A stretch of 64,000 nt of DNA from Escherichia phage vB_EcoM-fFiEco06 (NC_054914.1); one strand, 5' to 3'. Shown: positions 4,777 to 44,726, counted from the first letter of the stretch. A program made the numbers and translations. The notes: a model not told the origin generated them from the letters alone.

Positions 4777-4853
4777 TGGTCGAGGCAGTAGGGATCGAAC
4801 CTACGACCCAGGACTTAGAAGGTCCTTGCTCTTCCTTCTGAGCTATGCCTCGT
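4777..4853 (-). tRNA. tRNA-Arg (anticodon UCU)
   Basis: Cloverleaf folded by hand: acceptor CGAGGCA/UGCCUCG, anticodon loop CUUCUAA, T-loop GGTTCGATC, 3' CCA encoded. Confidence 0.85.
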
Positions 4854-4856
4854 ATT

Positions 4857-4931
4857 TGGCGGACGTGATAGGATTCGAACCTATAACCAATCGCTTAACA
4901 GGCGATCGCTCTGCCATTGAGCTACACATCC
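4857..4931 (-). tRNA. tRNA-Asn (anticodon GUU)
   Basis: Acceptor GGAUGUG/CACGUCC, D-stem GCUC/GAGC, anticodon stem AUCGC/GCGAU, loop CUGUUAA, T-arm AUAGG-TTCGAAT-CCUAU, CCA encoded. Confidence 0.8.
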
Positions 4932-4935
4932 AAAT

Positions 4936-5022
4936 TGGTGGGGAGTGGTGGAGTCGAACCACCCGAGTCGCAATGACAATGAATTTACAGTCCACACCGC
5001 TACCTCTACGGGATAACTCCCC
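4936..5022 (-). tRNA. tRNA-Tyr (anticodon GUA), type II with long variable arm
   Basis: Acceptor GGGGAGU/ACUCCCC, anticodon loop CUGUAAA, long variable arm, T-arm GGUGG-TTCGACT-CCACC, CCA encoded. Confidence 0.75.
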
Positions 5023-5031
5023 AAATTAATT

Positions 5032-5106
5032 TGGTGGCCCTGGGTGGAATTGAACCACCATCTGGCGATTATGAGTCGCTTGCTTGAACCTTCCAGCTAC
5101 AGGGCC
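5032..5106 (-). tRNA. tRNA with genomic anticodon CAU (T4 tRNA-Ile homolog by position; Met also possible)
   Basis: Acceptor GGCCCUG/CAGGGCC, anticodon loop CUCAUAA, T-arm GGUGG-TTCAATT-CCACC, CCA encoded; sits next to tRNA-Thr as T4 tRNA-Ile does. Confidence 0.75.
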
Positions 5107-5107
5107 T

Positions 5108-5183
5108 TGGTGCTGATTGACGGAATCGAACCGCCGACCTTCTCATTACAAGTGAGTTGCTCTACCTACTGAGCTAAATCAGC
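5108..5183 (-). tRNA. tRNA-Thr (anticodon UGU)
   Basis: Acceptor GCUGAUU/AAUCAGC, D-stem GCUC/GAGC, anticodon loop CUUGUAA, CCA encoded. Confidence 0.85.
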
Positions 5184-5188
5184 AAAAC

Positions 5189-5278
5189 TGGCGGAGGCGA
5201 TAGGATTTGAACCTATGAGTCGCCGGAGCGACTGCCGGTTTTCAAGACCGGTGCATTAAACCACTCTGCCACGCCTCC
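5189..5278 (-). tRNA. tRNA-Ser (anticodon UGA), type II
   Basis: Acceptor GGAGGCG/CGCCUCC, anticodon stem CCGGU/ACCGG, loop CUUGAAA, long variable arm, CCA encoded. Confidence 0.8.
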
Positions 5279-5280
5279 AG

Positions 5281-5354
5281 TCTCCGTGGCAGGATTTGAA
5301 CCTACGACATTCTGCTCCCAAAGCAGACGCTCTACCAAACTGAGCTACACGGAG
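5281..5354 (-). tRNA. tRNA-Pro (anticodon UGG)
   Basis: Acceptor CUCCGUG/CACGGAG, anticodon loop UUUGGGA, T-arm GUAGG-TTCAAAT-CCUGC; CCA not encoded. Confidence 0.85.
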
Positions 5355-5364
5355 TAAATTAAAT

Positions 5365-5438
<74 letters not shown>

Positions 5439-5443
5439 AAATT

Positions 5444-5530
5444 TGGTGCGAGAAGTGGGACTCGAACCCACAAGGAAATCATTCCGCAGCATTTTAAGTG
5501 CTGTGCCTTTACCAATTTGGCCATTCTCGC
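5444..5530 (-). tRNA. tRNA-Leu (anticodon UAA), type II
   Basis: Acceptor GCGAGAA/UUCUCGC, anticodon stem CAGCA/UGCUG, loop CUUAAAA, long variable arm, CCA encoded. Confidence 0.85.
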
Positions 5531-5531
5531 G

Positions 5532-5603
5532 CTGGGAATAAAGGACTCGAACCTTTGCATCCTGGAATCAAAATCCAGTGCCTTACCAACTTGGCTAATT
5601 CCC
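5532..5603 (-). tRNA. tRNA-Gln (anticodon UUG)
   Basis: Acceptor UGGGAAU/AUUCCCA, anticodon stem CUGGA/UCCAG, loop UUUUGAU, T-arm AAAGG-TTCGAGT-CCUUU; CCA not encoded. Confidence 0.85.
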
Positions 5604-5640
5604 AATTATTAACAAAGGCTCTTAAGCAAGAACCCTTGAT
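5604..5640 (-). promoter_or_regulatory. possible middle-type promoter (MotA-box-like TTGCTTAA plus TAATAAT) abutting tRNA-Gln 5' end
   Basis: Minus-strand CTTGCTTAAGAGCCTTTGTTAATAATTGGGAAT; spacing fits TGCTT box about -30 and -10 just before the tRNA 5' end; speculative. Confidence 0.25.
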
Positions 5641-11286: not shown

Positions 11287-12997
11287 TAACCTTAATTGGT
11301 TTGTTGGTGTTGTTGAAGATAGAATGGACCCATTAAAATTAGGTCGTGTTCGTGTTCGTGTGGTTGGTCTGCATCCACCTCAAAGAGCACAAGGCGATGT
11401 AATGGGTATTCCAACTGAAAAATTACCATGGATGTCAGTTATTCAACCTATAACTTCTGCAGCAATGTCTGGAATTGGAGGTTCTGTTACTGGACCGGTA
11501 GAAGGAACTAGAGTTTATGGTCATTTTTTAGACAAATGGAAAACTAACGGAATTGTCCTTGGCACGTATGGTGGAATAGTTCGCGAAAAACCGAATAGAC
11601 TTGAAGGATTTTCTGACCCAACTGGGCAATATCCTAGACGTTTAGGAAATGATACTAATGTATTAAACCAAGGCGGAGAAGTAGGATATGATTCGTCTTC
11701 TAACATTATCCAAGATAGTAACTTAGACACTGCAATAAATCCCGATGATAGACCACTATCAGAGATTCCAACCGATGATAATCCAAATATGTCAATGGCT
11801 GACATGCTTCGCCGTGATGAAGGATTAAGACTAAAAGTTTATTGGGATACTGAAGGATATCCGACAATTGGTATTGGTCATCTTATCATGAAGCAGCCAG
11901 TTCGTGATATGGCTCAAATTAATAAAGTTTTATCAAAACAAGTTGGTCGTGAAATTACTGGAAACCCAGGTTCTATTACGATGGAAGAGGCGACGACTTT
12001 ATTTGAACGTGATTTGGCTGATATGCAACGGGACATTAAATCACATTCTAAAGTAGGACCAGTCTGGCAAGCTGTCAACCGTTCTCGTCAAATGGCGTTA
12101 GAAAATATGGCATTTCAAATGGGTGTTGGCGGTGTAGCTAAATTTAACACAATGTTAACTGCTATGTTAGCCGGAGATTGGGAAAAAGCATATAAAGCCG
12201 GTCGTGATTCATTGTGGTATCAACAAACAAAAGGCCGTGCATCCCGTGTTACCATGATTATTCTTACGGGGAATTTGGAATCATATGGTGTTGAAGTGAA
12301 AACCCCAGCTAGGTCTCTATCAGCAATGGCTGCTACTGTAGCTAAATCTTCTGACCCGGCTGACCCTCCTATTCCAAATGACTCGAGAATTTTATTCAAA
12401 GAACCAGTTTCTTCATATAAAGGTGAATATCCTTATGTGCATACAATGGAAACTGAAAGCGGACATATTCAGGAATTTGATGATACTCCTGGGCAAGAAC
12501 GATACAGATTAGTTCATCCGACTGGAACTTATGAAGAAGTATCACCGTCAGGAAGAAGAACAAGAAAAACTGTCGATAATTTGTATGATATAACCAACGC
12601 TGATGGTAATTTTTTGGTAGCCGGTGATAAAAAGACTAACGTCGGTGGATCAGAAATTTATTACAACATGGATAATCGTCTTCACCAAATAGATGGAAGC
12701 AATACAATATTTGTACGTGGCGATGAAACTAAGACAGTTGAAGGCAATGGAACTATCCTAGTTAAAGGTAATGTTACTATTGTAGTTGAAGGTAATGCTG
12801 ACATTACAGTTAAAGGAGATGCTACCACTTTAGTTGAAGGAAATCAAACTAACACAGTAAATGGAAATCTTTCTTGGAAAGTTGCTGGGACAGTTGATTG
12901 GGACGTTGGTGGTGATTGGACAGAAAAAATGGCATCTATGAGTTCTATTTCATCTGGTCAATACACAATTGATGGATCGAGGATTGACATTGGCTAA
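11270..12997 (+). CDS. 5: gp5 baseplate hub subunit and tail lysozyme (cell-puncturing device)
   Basis: 575 aa; MEMISNNLNWFVGVVEDRMDPLKLGRVRVRVVGLHPP OB-fold start; lysozyme domain LRLKVYWDTEGYPTIGIGHLI; C-terminal VxGxxxxx beta-helix repeats. Confidence 0.95.
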   Translation: MEMISNNLNWFVGVVEDRMDPLKLGRVRVRVVGLHPPQRAQGDVMGIPTEKLPWMSVIQPITSAAMSGIGGSVTGPVEGTRVYGHFLDKWKTNGIVLGTYGGIVREKPNRLEGFSDPTGQYPRRLGNDTNVLNQGGEVGYDSSSNIIQDSNLDTAINPDDRPLSEIPTDDNPNMSMADMLRRDEGLRLKVYWDTEGYPTIGIGHLIMKQPVRDMAQINKVLSKQVGREITGNPGSITMEEATTLFERDLADMQRDIKSHSKVGPVWQAVNRSRQMALENMAFQMGVGGVAKFNTMLTAMLAGDWEKAYKAGRDSLWYQQTKGRASRVTMIILTGNLESYGVEVKTPARSLSAMAATVAKSSDPADPPIPNDSRILFKEPVSSYKGEYPYVHTMETESGHIQEFDDTPGQERYRLVHPTGTYEEVSPSGRRTRKTVDNLYDITNADGNFLVAGDKKTNVGGSEIYYNMDNRLHQIDGSNTIFVRGDETKTVEGNGTILVKGNVTIVVEGNADITVKGDATTLVEGNQTNTVNGNLSWKVAGTVDWDVGGDWTEKMASMSSISSGQYTIDGSRIDIG

Positions 12998-13031
12998 TAT
13001 ACTTCCAATGAGCGCTGATTTAGGAGAATCC

Positions 13032-13526
13032 ATGGAAGGTTCTTCTATCGACGTCACCTTTACCGCTCAATTAGAAACAGGTGAAACGTTAGTATCTATA
13101 AATATAACTAGTTACGAAGAAACTCCTGGGGTTTTAGTAGAAGAAAATCGCTTATACGGAACATATGAATCTGTGTTTGGATTTGGAAATGACGCGTTGA
13201 AATATCGTTTAGGCGATGAATTTAAAACTGCTGCTTCATGGGAAGAACTTCCTACTGATTCTGATACTCAGTTGTATTTATGGAAAGCTCCTCAAAACCT
13301 CCAGAAGACATTCACTTACGAAGTAACATTAATATATGACTACCAAGAACAAAGTGAATCTGGAGGTTCTGGCAGTAATTCTAGGTCATCTTCTGATACT
13401 ACTGAACCGACAGATCCTCCTGCTCCAGTAAGAAAAACTCTCGTTAAAAATTATACTAAAACTATAGTTGGAAATTGGAGTCGTTGGGCTAATAAATTAA
13501 GAAGCTATGTGTATGAGAGGTCATAG
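13032..13526 (+). CDS. 5.1: gp5.1-like hypothetical protein
   Basis: Track ORF starts at TTG 12969; ATG 13032 has AGGAGAA SD; start uncertain. Confidence 0.5.
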
Positions 13527-13820
13527 ATGTCAGGATTAAGTTATGATAAATGTGTTACTGCTGGTCATGAAGCATGGCCTCCAACAGTTGTGAATGCTAC
13601 ACAAAGTAAAGTATTCACTGGAGGAATTGCTGTTCTCGTAGCAGGTGATCCAATTACAGAACATACAGAAATTAAAAAGCCATATGAAACACATGGCGGA
13701 GTGACACAACCCAGAACTTCTAAGGTATATGTCACTGGAAAGAAAGCTGTTCAAATGGCTGATCCAATATCATGCGGTGATACTGTGGCTCAGGCATCAT
13801 CTAAAGTATTCATTAAATAG
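13527..13820 (+). CDS. 5.4: gp5.4 PAAR-repeat spike tip protein
   Basis: 97 aa; PAAR-like motifs ([19 protein letters not shown]); immediately follows 5.1. Confidence 0.8.
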
Positions 13821-28086: not shown

Positions 28087-31227
<3,141 letters not shown>

Positions 31228-31255: not shown

Positions 31256-33235
31256 ATGACTTTATTATCTCCGGGCATTGAGCTCAAAGAAACTACGGTT
31301 CAAAGCACCGTGGTTAATAACTCTACTGGTACAGCAGCTTTGGCCGGTAAATTCCAGTGGGGTCCTGCTTTTCAGATTAAACAGGTTACAAACGAAGTAG
31401 ATTTAGTTAATACTTTTGGTCAACCTACAGCTGAAACTGCTGACTATTTTATGTCTGCGATGAATTTCTTGCAGTACGGAAATGACTTACGAGTAGTTCG
31501 TGCTGTTGATAGAGATACCGCTAAAAACTCATCGCCAATTGCTGGTAATATTGAATACACAATTTCTACCCCAGGTAGTAACTATGCGGTTGGAGATAAA
31601 ATCACGGTCAAATATGTTTCAGATGATATTGAAACTGAAGGTAAAATTACTGAAGTAGACGCAGATGGAAAAATTAAGAAAATTAATATTCCTACTGCAA
31701 AAATTATCGCTAAAGCGAAAGAAGTCGGTGAATATCCGGAATTAGGTTCTAACTGGACTGCGGAAATTTCTTCGTCTTCCTCTGGTTTAGCTGCAGTAAT
31801 AACTCTTGGAAAAATTATTACTGATTCTGGTATTTTATTAGCTGAAATTGAAAATGCTGAAGCTGCTATGACAGCAGTTGATTTTCAGGCAAATCTTGAA
31901 AAATATGGAATTCCAGGAGTAGTAGCTCTCTATCCAGGCGAATTAGGCGATAAAATTGAAATTGAAATCGTATCTAAAGCTGACTATGCGAAAGGCGCTT
32001 CTGCATTACTGCCAATTTATCCAGGTGGTGGTACTCGTGCATCTACTGCCAAGGCAGTATTTGGATATGGGCCGCAGACTGACTCACAGTACGCTATTAT
32101 AGTTCGTCGAAATGATGCTATTGTTCAAAGCGTTGTTCTTTCAACTAAGTGTGGTGAAAAAGATATTTACGATAGTAACATCTATATCGATGACTTTTTC
32201 GCAAAAGGTGGTTCAGAATATATTTTTGCAACTGCACAAAACTGGCCAGAAGGATTCTCTGGAATTTTAACTCTTTCTGGTGGATTATCATCAAATGCTG
32301 AAGTTACAGCAGGAGATTTGATGGAAGCTTGGGACTTCTTTGCTGACCGTGAATCTGTTGACGTTCAACTGTTTATTGCGGGTTCTTGTGCCGGTGAATC
32401 TTTAGAAACAGCATCTACTGTCCAAAAACACGTCGTTTCAATTGGAGATGCTCGCCAAGATTGCTTAGTATTGTGCTCACCACCGCGTGAAACTGTTGTT
32501 GGAATTCCTGTAACTCGTGCAGTAGATAATTTAGTTAACTGGAGAACTGCGGCAGGTTCATATACTGATAATAACTTTAATATTAGTTCAACCTACGCAG
32601 CAATTGATGGTAACTACAAATATCAGTATGACAAATATAATGATGTAAATCGTTGGGTTCCATTAGCAGCTGACATTGCTGGTTTATGCGCGAGAACTGA
32701 TAACGTTTCTCAGACTTGGATGTCTCCAGCTGGTTATAATCGTGGTCAGATTCTTAACGTTATTAAACTTGCTATTGAAACTCGCCAAGCTCAGCGCGAC
32801 CGTTTATATCAAGAAGCTATCAACCCAGTAACTGGTACAGGTGGTGATGGTTACGTATTGTATGGTGATAAAACAGCTACTTCTGTTCCTTCTCCATTTG
32901 ATCGTATTAACGTTCGTCGTCTGTTTAATATGTTGAAAACGAATATCGGACGTAGTTCAAAATATCGTTTGTTCGAATTAAACAACGCGTTTACTCGTTC
33001 ATCATTCCGCACAGAAACTGCCCAATACTTACAGGGAATTAAAGCTCTCGGTGGAATTTATGAATATCGTGTAGTTTGCGATACAACAAATAACACTCCG
33101 TCAGTAATTGATAGAAATGAGTTTGTTGCAACATTCTACATTCAACCGGCTCGTAGTATAAATTATATCCAACTTAATTTCGTCGCAACTGCTACTGGTG
33201 CAGATTTTGATGAGTTAACTGGTCTTGCAGGTTAA
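31256..33235 (+). CDS. 18: gp18 tail sheath protein
   Basis: 659 aa as T4 gp18. Confidence 0.95.
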   Translation: MTLLSPGIELKETTVQSTVVNNSTGTAALAGKFQWGPAFQIKQVTNEVDLVNTFGQPTAETADYFMSAMNFLQYGNDLRVVRAVDRDTAKNSSPIAGNIEYTISTPGSNYAVGDKITVKYVSDDIETEGKITEVDADGKIKKINIPTAKIIAKAKEVGEYPELGSNWTAEISSSSSGLAAVITLGKIITDSGILLAEIENAEAAMTAVDFQANLEKYGIPGVVALYPGELGDKIEIEIVSKADYAKGASALLPIYPGGGTRASTAKAVFGYGPQTDSQYAIIVRRNDAIVQSVVLSTKCGEKDIYDSNIYIDDFFAKGGSEYIFATAQNWPEGFSGILTLSGGLSSNAEVTAGDLMEAWDFFADRESVDVQLFIAGSCAGESLETASTVQKHVVSIGDARQDCLVLCSPPRETVVGIPVTRAVDNLVNWRTAAGSYTDNNFNISSTYAAIDGNYKYQYDKYNDVNRWVPLAADIAGLCARTDNVSQTWMSPAGYNRGQILNVIKLAIETRQAQRDRLYQEAINPVTGTGGDGYVLYGDKTATSVPSPFDRINVRRLFNMLKTNIGRSSKYRLFELNNAFTRSSFRTETAQYLQGIKALGGIYEYRVVCDTTNNTPSVIDRNEFVATFYIQPARSINYIQLNFVATATGADFDELTGLAG

Positions 33236-33243
33236 TTGATTAT

Positions 33244-33264
33244 GGGGCTTCGGCCCCTATTCTC
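33244..33264 (+). terminator. stem-loop GGGGC-UUCG-GCCCC plus U-rich tail after gene 18
   Basis: Perfect hairpin 33244-33257 followed by TATTCTC. Confidence 0.55.
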
Positions 33265-33274
33265 GAGGAAACAA

Positions 33275-33880
33275 GTGATTATTTCTAAGTTTGTTACAAT
33301 AAAACCAAGAAATCATTCAAAAATGTGGTCGACAATTCTGGGATATAAAGTATCATATCATGATACAGTATCTGTTCCAATAGAATTAATGCCAAAGAAT
33401 AGTAATAAAATAGTTGACGCTAAATGTGATTTGTGTGGTATTAAATTTAGTAGAAGCATTCAGCTTTTAAATAGAACACCCACGCATGCATGTAGAAAAT
33501 GTAGCATTAAACAAGTTGCTATTAAAAATTCGGAAGTTCAATCTGGAATAAGTAGACCATGGCAAAGAGGTGATAAACATCCTCGATGGACTGGTAAAAG
33601 AAAAGAGTTTGCATTATATGCTAGTAGAGTTCATTCTATAACTAAGTCAGCTAAAATAAGAAAAATCTGGTCAAAATGGCCAAATGCTGATAAAATAGGA
33701 GTGTGTGGTGTAGAAGGTGCTTACCAGCTTGATCATAAGGTATCTATCAAATATGGATTTGATAATTTAATTCCGCCGGAAATTATAGCAAGCGTAAAAA
33801 ATTTAGAAATAATCACTTGGGAATCTAACCGAGAAAAGTCAAAAAGAAATAGCGTAGATCTTTGGGATTTACTAGAATGA
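33275..33880 (+). CDS. putative HNH-family (His-Me finger) endonuclease with CxxC...CxxC zinc-ribbon; candidate free-standing homing endonuclease
   Basis: GTG 33275 with GAGGAA SD 4 nt upstream (track TTG start 33236 lies inside the terminator hairpin); CDLCG...CRKCS; QLDHKVS...NLIPPE...NLEIITWESNREKSKR resembles the (D/H)H..N..N HNH core. Confidence 0.6.
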   Translation: MIISKFVTIKPRNHSKMWSTILGYKVSYHDTVSVPIELMPKNSNKIVDAKCDLCGIKFSRSIQLLNRTPTHACRKCSIKQVAIKNSEVQSGISRPWQRGDKHPRWTGKRKEFALYASRVHSITKSAKIRKIWSKWPNADKIGVCGVEGAYQLDHKVSIKYGFDNLIPPEIIASVKNLEIITWESNREKSKRNSVDLWDLLE

Positions 33881-33906
33881 TTCTAAAGGCCTGTTTCGGC
33901 AGGCCA

Positions 33907-33914
33907 TATAAATA
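33907..33914 (+). promoter_or_regulatory. late promoter TATAAATA (distal) for gene 19
   Basis: Exact motif directly after hairpin. Confidence 0.4.
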
Positions 33915-33965
33915 CACTATATCCTTAATTCTTTAATTCTATATGCCCTAGGTTAAACATAGGGA

Positions 33966-33973
33966 TATAAATA
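33966..33973 (+). promoter_or_regulatory. late promoter TATAAATA (proximal) for gene 19
   Basis: Exact motif 15 nt upstream of ATG 33988. Confidence 0.45.
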
Positions 33974-33987
33974 CTACAGAGGCTAAT

Positions 33988-34479
33988 ATGTTTGTAGATG
34001 ATGTAACACGAGCGTTTGAATCTGGTGATTTTGCTCGACCTAACTTATTCCAAGTAGAAATTTCTTATCTTGGACAAAATTTTACATTCCAATGTAAAGC
34101 CACTGCTTTACCAGCTGGTATTGTAGAAAAAATTCCAGTCGGATTTATGAACCGTAAAATTAACGTAGCAGGCGATCGTACATTCGATGACTGGACTGTT
34201 ACAGTAATGAACGATGAAGCTCATGATGCTCGCCAGAAGTTTGTTGATTGGCAAAGCATTGCTGCTGGTCAAGGAAACGAAATTACTGGTGGAAAACCTG
34301 CAGAGTATAAAAAGAGCGCTATTGTTCGTCAATATGCTCGTGATGCTAAAACAGTAACAAAAGAAATTGAAATTAAAGGTCTGTGGCCTACTAACGTGGG
34401 TGAACTTCAATTAGATTGGGATTCAAACAATGAAATCCAAACCTTTGAAGTAACTCTTGCTCTCGATTATTGGGAATAA
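33988..34479 (+). CDS. 19: gp19 tail tube protein
   Basis: 163 aa as T4 gp19. Confidence 0.9.
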   Translation: MFVDDVTRAFESGDFARPNLFQVEISYLGQNFTFQCKATALPAGIVEKIPVGFMNRKINVAGDRTFDDWTVTVMNDEAHDARQKFVDWQSIAAGQGNEITGGKPAEYKKSAIVRQYARDAKTVTKEIEIKGLWPTNVGELQLDWDSNNEIQTFEVTLALDYWE

Positions 34480-39863: not shown

Positions 39864-39878
39864 TCTTTGACGATTTAA

Positions 39879-39906
39879 GGGACCTTCGGGTCCCTTTAGT
39901 TGTTTT
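39879..39906 (+). terminator. rho-independent terminator after gene 23
   Basis: GGGACC-UUCG-GGUCCC followed by T-rich run. Confidence 0.65.
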
Positions 39907-39911
39907 TATGG

Positions 39912-39919
39912 TATAAATA
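39912..39919 (+). promoter_or_regulatory. late promoter TATAAATA for gene 24
   Basis: Exact motif 28 nt upstream of ATG 39947. Confidence 0.55.
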
Positions 39920-39946
39920 AATCATATAAACCAAAAGGAAAGCGCA

Positions 39947-44676: not shown

Positions 44677-44689
44677 AATATTTCCTCAG

Positions 44690-44697
44690 TATAAATA
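44690..44697 (+). promoter_or_regulatory. TATAAATA late promoter motif upstream of uvsW
   Basis: Exact motif 29 nt upstream of ATG 44727. Confidence 0.4.
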
Positions 44698-44726
44698 TAG
44701 ATATATTTATTACATGGTATTTAGAC

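Follow-up and report, generated by a model that had tools for sequence, protein, structure and literature searches.

Among the described systems closest to the gene treated here are mobile elements of T-even phages. Genes of the Mob family and I-TevIII encode His-Me finger proteins with zinc-binding modules, lie wedged between conserved genes and occur sporadically, and for the Seg enzymes, which are GIY-YIG proteins, both cleavage and exclusion have been demonstrated. We analyzed a stretch of 64,000 nucleotides from Escherichia phage vB_EcoM-fFiEco06 (NC_054914.1; hereafter, the window, to which all coordinates refer), in which an open reading frame (ORF) stands between gene 18 (tail sheath) and gene 19 (tail tube), at positions 33,236 to 33,987. 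GenBank has listed this ORF since 1994 as ORF19.1 of phage T6; the two proteins are 99.5% identical, site and GTG start coincide, and the T6 record assigns the gene no function. Like the Mob and I-TevIII genes, the ORF appears to combine a His-Me finger with a zinc-binding module in a gene of sporadic occurrence, and we propose that it is probably a free-standing homing endonuclease gene of a His-Me finger (HNH-like) family that lacks a curated profile. The family is best explained as specialized for the gp18/gp19 junction.

The junction is polymorphic across T4-like phages. Among the ~502 phage records of our Tequatrovirus set, defined by flanks at least 90% identical to those of T4, 116 (~23%) are filled and the rest are empty; 68 of the filled records bear one form of the ORF (allele A) and 48 another (allele B, the RB3 type). 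The window, itself from a Tequatrovirus, carries allele A. The locus is precisely empty or precisely filled among genomes that are 95–99% identical in their flanks, a second genus is polymorphic as well (locus L020 filled, loci L019 and L021 empty), and in a sample retrieved by gp18 similarity alone 3 of 80 loci were filled. The gap between genes 18 and 19 measures 116 bp in T4 against 752 bp in the window, in line with the statement, in an earlier note made from this DNA alone, that the two genes are adjacent in T4. The T4 bases replaced by the insert, ACGGTGCA, stand directly 3′ of the gene 18 stop codon, and all 10 of the empty Tequatrovirus sites that were aligned show the same junction and the same 111-nt anchor spacing.

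Every full-length homologue examined directly follows gp18, in Gaprivervirus, Jiaodavirus, Winklervirus and Dhakavirus and in Acinetobacter and Aeromonas phages, and ~45 environmental contigs carry a full-length homologue after a gp18 that is 37–60% identical (in two of them it is inverted). The ORF thus belongs to an old family that keeps to this position even in T4-like phages only distantly related to one another, and is not the product of a single recent insertion. Site-specific homing produces just such a pattern, in which a gene is sporadic yet faithful to one precise site, here between the conserved gp18 and gp19. The earlier note had read the ORF as a likely free-standing homing endonuclease insertion that T4 lacks, and the empty and filled sites fit this reading. 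The comparison of junctions that it called for, with the ORF in under a quarter of Tequatrovirus records, argues against a conserved non-nuclease gene carried by all T-even phages. In Sinorhizobium phage phiM12 (L005:3001–3573) the homologue follows the sheath gene and the next gene is NosD-like rather than gp19, which suggests that the tie is to the end of gp18 and not to gp19. C-terminal-only or fragmentary versions of the ORF, such as BFVD entry M1HDJ8 (Salmonella phage S16, 106 aa) and P0114 (phage WL-3, 59 aa), could be degenerating copies of the ORF or split genes at this locus.

A single plus-strand ORF lies in the 752-bp gap, and the ORF listing gives no ORF of at least 40 aa on the opposite strand of the gap. 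The longest open frame listed runs from a TTG (33236–33880, 214 aa); the supported start is the GTG at 33275–33277, which the old T6 entry also gives and from which the protein has 201 residues. This agrees with the earlier reading of an ORF of about 200 aa behind a strong Shine-Dalgarno sequence (GAGGA, 5 nt upstream), and the homologues concur: all share the aligned start position, opening with 'MI...', and nine Tequatrovirus copies are intact from the GTG. The record of phage vB_EcoM-fHoEco02, to which the window is 100% identical over the 1.6 kb tested and whose annotation matches our coordinates, instead starts the ORF at an in-frame ATG at 33242, inside a hairpin. The best homologue matches reach E = 1e-130, and variable sites are split into 17 synonymous and 1 nonsynonymous in allele A and 18 and 8 in allele B. 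Both alleles are under purifying selection and, given the homologue E values and the synonymous excess, the ORF is far beyond chance. The GC content over the ORF (33250–33850) is 32–34%, compared with 38–42% in gene 18 and ~40% in gene 19, and its AT skew is positive; both GC content and skew are typical of accessory genes in T-even phages.

The ORF product carries the stretch YQLDHKVS...NLEIITWESNREK, and the paired CxxC motifs and the DH..N..N core pointed out earlier are where they were said to be. The first CxxC (C51/C54) is encoded at 33425–33436 and the second (C73/C76) at 33491–33502; the core codons lie at 33731–33736 (D153-H154), 33800–33802 (N176) and 33827–33829 (N185). Across 43 homologues, down to 30% identity, Q151, D153, H154, S157, G161, N176, L177, W182, N185, R186 and K188 are invariant, as is C54, with 90% or more conservation at C51, C73 and C76. 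The putative catalytic histidine after an aspartate, the structural asparagine and the metal-binding asparagine of the helix that define a His-Me finger are therefore all among the invariant positions, and N185 is kept in relatives fused to NUMOD3 motifs. The N-terminal module draws weak DUF4379 matches in 17 of the 43 family members. The AlphaFold model (mean predicted local distance difference test score, 91.7) places the conserved residues on a beta-beta-alpha element, consistent with a beta-beta-alpha-metal fold. Its best structural matches are the small HNH nickases Gme HNH (4h9d) and GVE2 HNH (5h0o) and the HNH domain of Cas9, and a Foldseek search of the BFVD viral models returned proteins named HNH or homing endonuclease (E = 1e-5 to 5e-3).

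With 6541 clusters at the 50% identity level (E up to 0.001), this is a large family, and its link to recognized nucleases runs through the domain relatives. The window protein matches PHROG 5104 ('unknown function') at E = 5.8e-83, and its nuclease domain matches PHROG 5104 only. A profile of the C-terminal domain finds 158 proteins, including stand-alone proteins of ~100 aa, some of which are named McrA by JGI. Six relatives (P0061, P0063, P0146, P0106, P0100 and P0069) match PHROG 1035, 'endonuclease VII' (4.5e-7 to 3e-3), and P0061 and P0063 also match PHROG 6050, 'HNH endonuclease' (1.3e-6 and 2.3e-5). The relatives with such matches, several of them stand-alone proteins, are 40–47% identical in the nuclease domain, so that the ORF is connected to HNH profiles only transitively. 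In P0133, P0138, P0146 and P0161 the domain is preceded by NUMOD3 motifs, which are DNA-binding repeats of homing endonucleases; other relatives are DUF7487-fused or stand alone. Relatives with other N-terminal parts, on environmental phage contigs (L072:3312–3923, L089:2943–3779, L098:3024–3665 and L060:2901–3773), stand between gp47 (Mre11-like) and gp46 (Rad50-like), after gp23 (major capsid) or after a DnaB-like helicase, settings that are classic for free-standing homing endonuclease genes. Because residue conservation, the predicted structure, the domain relatives and their genomic setting agree, we accept the assignment to the His-Me finger superfamily as supported, in line with the homing-endonuclease-like ORF of the earlier note, for which the invariant DH/N/N residues, the HNH structural matches, the NUMOD3 relatives and the empty and filled locus all speak.

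Searches for particular families were negative. No match to HNH_3 (PF13392), which marks the T4 Mob family, was found in the window protein or its 43 relatives; no GIY-YIG profile, as in the T4 Seg family, matched the window protein; and sequence searches of PDB returned no HNH match for it. Residues 164–188 (33764–33838), IPPEIIASVKNLEIITWESNREK, mimic the consensus of leucine-rich repeats, and a PDB profile search with the C-terminal domain gave only spurious leucine-rich-repeat matches (best E = 0.0013). This segment could mislead automated annotation.

The two alleles differ in one half of the protein. Their DNA is ~45% identical over 33290–33656 and 90–100% identical on both sides; the leader and first few codons, and then everything from 33657 to the stop codon, are nearly the same. 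At the protein level the N-terminal modules share 26% identity and the nuclease modules 88%. Allele A looks like a recombinant, because the nearest relatives of its N-terminal module are in other phages (63% to P0002) and those of the shared nuclease half are B-type proteins. A common nuclease half joined to an exchangeable N-terminal module fits the modular build of homing endonuclease genes.

The insert carries its own ribosome-binding site and, as far as can be seen in the window, no late promoter. The promoter scan finds none between the gene 18 stop codon and the ORF, the nearest upstream being at 31220, and we therefore infer that the ORF is expressed by late read-through from gene 18. 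The hairpin just after gene 18 has no T-run behind it, and the terminator scan calls no intrinsic terminator there. Hairpins do flank the ORF on both sides, as the earlier note described, but of the two it is the upstream one alone that came with the insert. T4 has the downstream hairpin and both TATAAATA late promoters in identical form, which marks them as ancestral and outside the insert; these promoters, beginning at 33907 and 33966, are the gene 19 late promoters that had been placed immediately after the ORF. A search of the 5′ region of the ORF against Rfam gave no family match. Sequestration of the ribosome site, or some special 5′ RNA structure, was considered and rejected, the fold being no better than that of shuffled sequences (z = −0.6).

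Gene 18 polymorphism next to the insert follows the state of the ORF. A 55-nt cluster within the last 95 nt of the gene (33142–33196) contains 20 variable sites, most of them third positions of codons, and the 93 nt upstream of it contain none; polymorphisms in gene 19 are shuffled relative to the ORF. In the genomes sampled, 5 of 5 A carriers share one haplotype of this cluster and 4 of 4 B carriers another, and the T4 type occurs in empty genomes only. Searches with the 106-nt segment at no less than 95% identity retrieved 250 records of T4 type, 84 of A type (with 68 A carriers) and 118 of B type (with 48 B carriers). Records of the carrier haplotypes outnumber the carriers, and empty genomes with carrier-type haplotypes therefore exist. 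This linkage is compatible with, but would not be specific to, co-conversion of the flank.

Within this cluster, ~110 nt upstream of the ORF, the Ile-Asn codons of the gp18 motif KPARS-I-N-Y/F-I are written ATA AAT in 17 of 29 filled loci (a non-redundant set) and in 6 of 80 empty loci; each of the six belongs to Tequatrovirus or to a close relative of it. By lineage, the recoding occurs in 10 of 18 with filled loci and in 2 of 60 with empty loci, and the controls, third-position composition of the 60 upstream codons and locus GC content, are the same in filled and empty loci. The recoding may reflect self-immunity of a target site or may be a co-converted donor flank. A third, in which the codons and a preceding T form a late-promoter-like TATAAATT that would serve the ORF, is weakened because the leading T is present in only 10 of the 17 recoded loci and TATAAATT shows no enrichment in the window (9 found, 13 expected). 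Two further associations were rejected: a gp18 Thr-to-Gln change (SINYI-T/Q-LNF) as carrier immunity, since with 80 more loci Gln proved common at empty sites (52 Q and 26 T, against 21 of each at filled ones), and a correlation of N-terminal module type with ATA AAT, which showed no clean pattern.

We envisage the following sequence of events. The N-terminal half, with its beta strands and zinc ribbon, would recognize DNA, and the C-terminal 75 residues would act as a beta-beta-alpha-metal nuclease, made during late transcription that reads through from gene 18. In a mixed infection the enzyme would cut or nick the DNA of relatives that lack the ORF, either within or close to the highly conserved gene 18 3′ end or at the empty junction of genes 18 and 19. 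T4-type recombination-dependent repair would then copy the ORF from the carrier along with the part of gene 18 next to it. Carriers could escape cleavage through disruption of the site by the insertion or through recoding of the nearby gp18 codons. A broader and tentative synthesis, which we consider possible but doubtful, joins these elements into one account: the ORF19.1 family would be locus-faithful homing endonucleases whose zinc ribbon reads the near-invariant C-terminal codons of gp18 (...S-I-N-Y/F-I...), carriers would rewrite ATC AAC TAC to ATA AAT TAT, and the A and B alleles would record a switch of specificity in an arms race with resistant sites. In a variant of it, TATAAATT would double as a late promoter of the endonuclease inside the sheath gene and travel with the ORF.

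Several observations weigh against a homing endonuclease. No HNH model of Pfam or NCBIfam matches the window protein, which, taken literally, is the outcome that the earlier note had said would refute its reading; what its proposed profile search does yield is the set of PHROG links through relatives. HNH_4 gives a weak match (E = 0.078) in 1 of the 43 relatives, Foldseek against PDB returned no matches, and hhalign against an approximate sequence of the Cas9 HNH domain aligned the motif without significance (E = 0.094). Some empty sites, for example in T2, have a carrier-type haplotype, and any insertion in tight linkage with its flanks would be expected to show such a haplotype association. 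A gene of benefit to the phage could likewise be under strong purifying selection and persist for so long at a single locus, and the literature searched holds no report of a cleavage site, homing or marker exclusion for this ORF.

The main rival is a nuclease kept for the phage's own benefit, which might damage competitor or host DNA or promote recombination or amplification and would be inherited mostly vertically at an old locus from which it is often lost. Retention of the locus across very divergent T4-like phages, the selection seen in both alleles and the intactness of all nine copies checked would suit it, and a 2026 paper found that the T6 homing endonuclease SegB can benefit its phage. 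We nevertheless consider it unlikely in view of the low occupancy (~23% of Tequatrovirus, 3 of 80 in the unbiased gp18 sample), empty sites that are uniform and free of deletion scars, and two alleles with swapped halves in near-identical flanks; it also overlaps with homing and does not exclude it.

Two other explanations were considered. The protein could be a non-catalytic, zinc-ribbon nucleic-acid-binding protein, for instance a late regulator of tail genes, in which the DH/N/N residues do not form an active site. The lack of a curated HNH match would be natural for such a protein, and the spurious repeat matches drawn by IPPEIIGxIxNLEIITWxxNR make the sequence alone ambiguous, but exactly the residues expected for His-Me catalysis are the invariant ones, the structural matches are nucleases, relatives of the domain are fused to NUMOD3 or named McrA as stand-alone proteins, and the tail genes work without the ORF in T4 and most relatives. 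We regard this as quite improbable. Hardly credible is a role in packaging, as an HNH nuclease of the HK97 gp74 type that would help the terminase: the gene for the large terminase (gene 17) does lie one gene upstream, but the ORF follows the sheath gene rather than the terminase, as a terminase-associated HNH gene would not, T4 and ~77% of Tequatrovirus records lack it and package normally, and relatives of the domain occur at unrelated junctions. T4-type packaging is moreover of the headful kind and needs no cos cleavage. A homing endonuclease gene thus accounts best, in our judgment, for the locus as a whole.

Elsewhere in the window four insertion sites of known T4 homing genes are vacant. 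The T4 segC, segD, segE and segB sites (12990–13820, 39864–39946, 44677–44726 and 4777–5604) are empty: in the fHoEco02 annotation genes 5.1 and 5.4 abut, the gap between genes 23 and 24 is 83 bp, that between inh and uvsW is 50 bp, and nothing interrupts the tRNA cluster. This annotation confirms the earlier statement that these four places hold no endonuclease ORF, and the record annotation of positions 1–50000 of the window lists no endonuclease. In Dhakavirus-type phages an endonuclease-like ORF stands between gp19 and gp20 (Bp7, L007:4269–4850; also in L027 and L038, gap ~4814 to 5533). It is annotated 'HNH endonuclease' and gives weak matches to SegE GIY-YIG and NUMOD3, and in Bp7 the annotation splits gp20 into two pieces. 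A second insertion site appears to lie at the tube/portal junction.

In most records the ORF itself is labelled 'hypothetical', and in a few HNH or homing endonuclease. It goes unmentioned in a 2010 review of the mobile elements of T4, Petrov et al. (2010) list a single unnamed 'other HNH' for T6, and in the literature searched we found no paper that characterizes ORF19.1. The family also bears the labels 'putative head morphogenesis protein', 'holin' and 'type II restriction endonuclease' (AP018814, T6; MW883059, SYGD1; PQ657792 and PQ657790, Roth19 and Roth16), which are probably annotation errors. Three records with unexpected host or taxon labels, MG010123 (Staphylococcus phage SAJK-IND, 32 kb), OR584013 (Pseudomonas phage PsgM02F) and NC_041919 (HP3, 'Rosemountvirus'), contain T-even sequence 98–100% identical to coliphages and likely reflect contamination or mislabelling. 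Pfam places no nuclease domain in the protein and PHROGs file it under unknown function, so many phage genomes would carry an unrecognized nuclease. For phage therapy genomics the ORF is harmless, and correct annotation is warranted. If active, the element would skew how the sheath/tube region is inherited when T-even phages infect the same cell, and the classic T4 map of homing elements would gain a sixteenth-type site. Locus fidelity, swapped recognition halves and gp18 recoding together provide a testable candidate target for co-evolution of an endonuclease and its target site.

Table 1. Features at the gene 18–gene 19 junction, in coordinates of the whole 64-kb window; all lie on the plus strand.
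Feature	Position	Strand	Basis
ORF19.1-type coding sequence, 201 aa plus TGA stop, GTG start	33275..33880	+	homologue alignment, T6 entry, PHROG 5104
Shine-Dalgarno GAGGA, 5 nt before GTG	33265..33269	+	read from sequence; same in allele B
N-terminal module, residues ~6–127: predicted beta strands, treble-clef-like zinc ribbon, helical linker	33290..33656	+	A/B swap region
Zinc-ribbon cysteines C51, C54, C73, C76	33425..33502	+	conservation
Predicted C-terminal His-Me finger (HNH-like, 'HNN') nuclease domain, residues ~128–201	33656..33877	+	
Putative catalytic core D153-H154...N176-L177...W182...N185-R186-x-K188	33731..33838	+	invariant columns, 43 sequences
Segment replacing T4 8 nt ACGGTGCA; hairpin, ribosome site and ORF	33237..33880	+	alignments to T4 and RB3 junctions
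GGGGC-TTCG-GCCCC hairpin, 5′ end of insert, just after gene 18 stop	33244..33257	+	sequence and alignment
GGCCTG/CAGGCC hairpin, ancestral post-gene-18	33888..33905	+	100% identical in T4, RB3 and window
Two T4 late promoters TATAAATA serving gene 19, ancestral	33907–33914, 33966–33973	+	promoter scan and T4 alignment
Polymorphism cluster of 55 nt, mostly synonymous, in the gene 18 3′ end; haplotype tracks ORF allele	33142..33196	+	20 variable sites
gp18 Ile-Asn codons ATA AAT; with preceding T, TATAAATT (33157–33164)	33158..33163	+	recoding associated with ORF across lineages
Gene 18 (tail sheath), upstream neighbor, probable target-site carrier	31256..33235	+	ORF listing and fHoEco02 annotation
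Gene 19 (tail tube), downstream neighbor	33988..34479	+	ORF listing and fHoEco02 annotation

Genes of the T4 Mob family and I-TevIII are free-standing, as the ORF is, or intron-borne. The ORF matches neither HNH_3 nor any other Pfam HNH model and occupies a different locus. Its order of domains is also distinct, the putative DNA-binding module coming first and the nuclease last; in Mob and I-HmuI the nuclease is at the N-terminus. SegF and SegG of T4 provide the model for the proposed behavior, in which the neighboring gene of an ORF-less relative is cut, repaired from the carrier and flanking markers are dragged along, and the gene 18 haplotype linked to the ORF resembles a Seg-like co-conversion or immunity tract; unlike the Seg enzymes, the ORF has no GIY-YIG motif, and its homing role is predicted. 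The motif takes the Cas9-like form DH...N...N-R-x-K, without flanking cysteines, and relative to Gme HNH, GVE2 HNH and Cas9 HNH the protein has a longer insert between the two strands and, in addition, the N-terminal zinc-ribbon module. NUMOD3 motifs are absent from the window protein, but relatives of its nuclease domain bear NUMOD3 repeats instead of the zinc ribbon, the modular build typical of homing endonucleases. The ORF is an uncharacterized example of a well-known kind of phage element, to which it adds fidelity to one locus, a module swap and a candidate target or immunity site.
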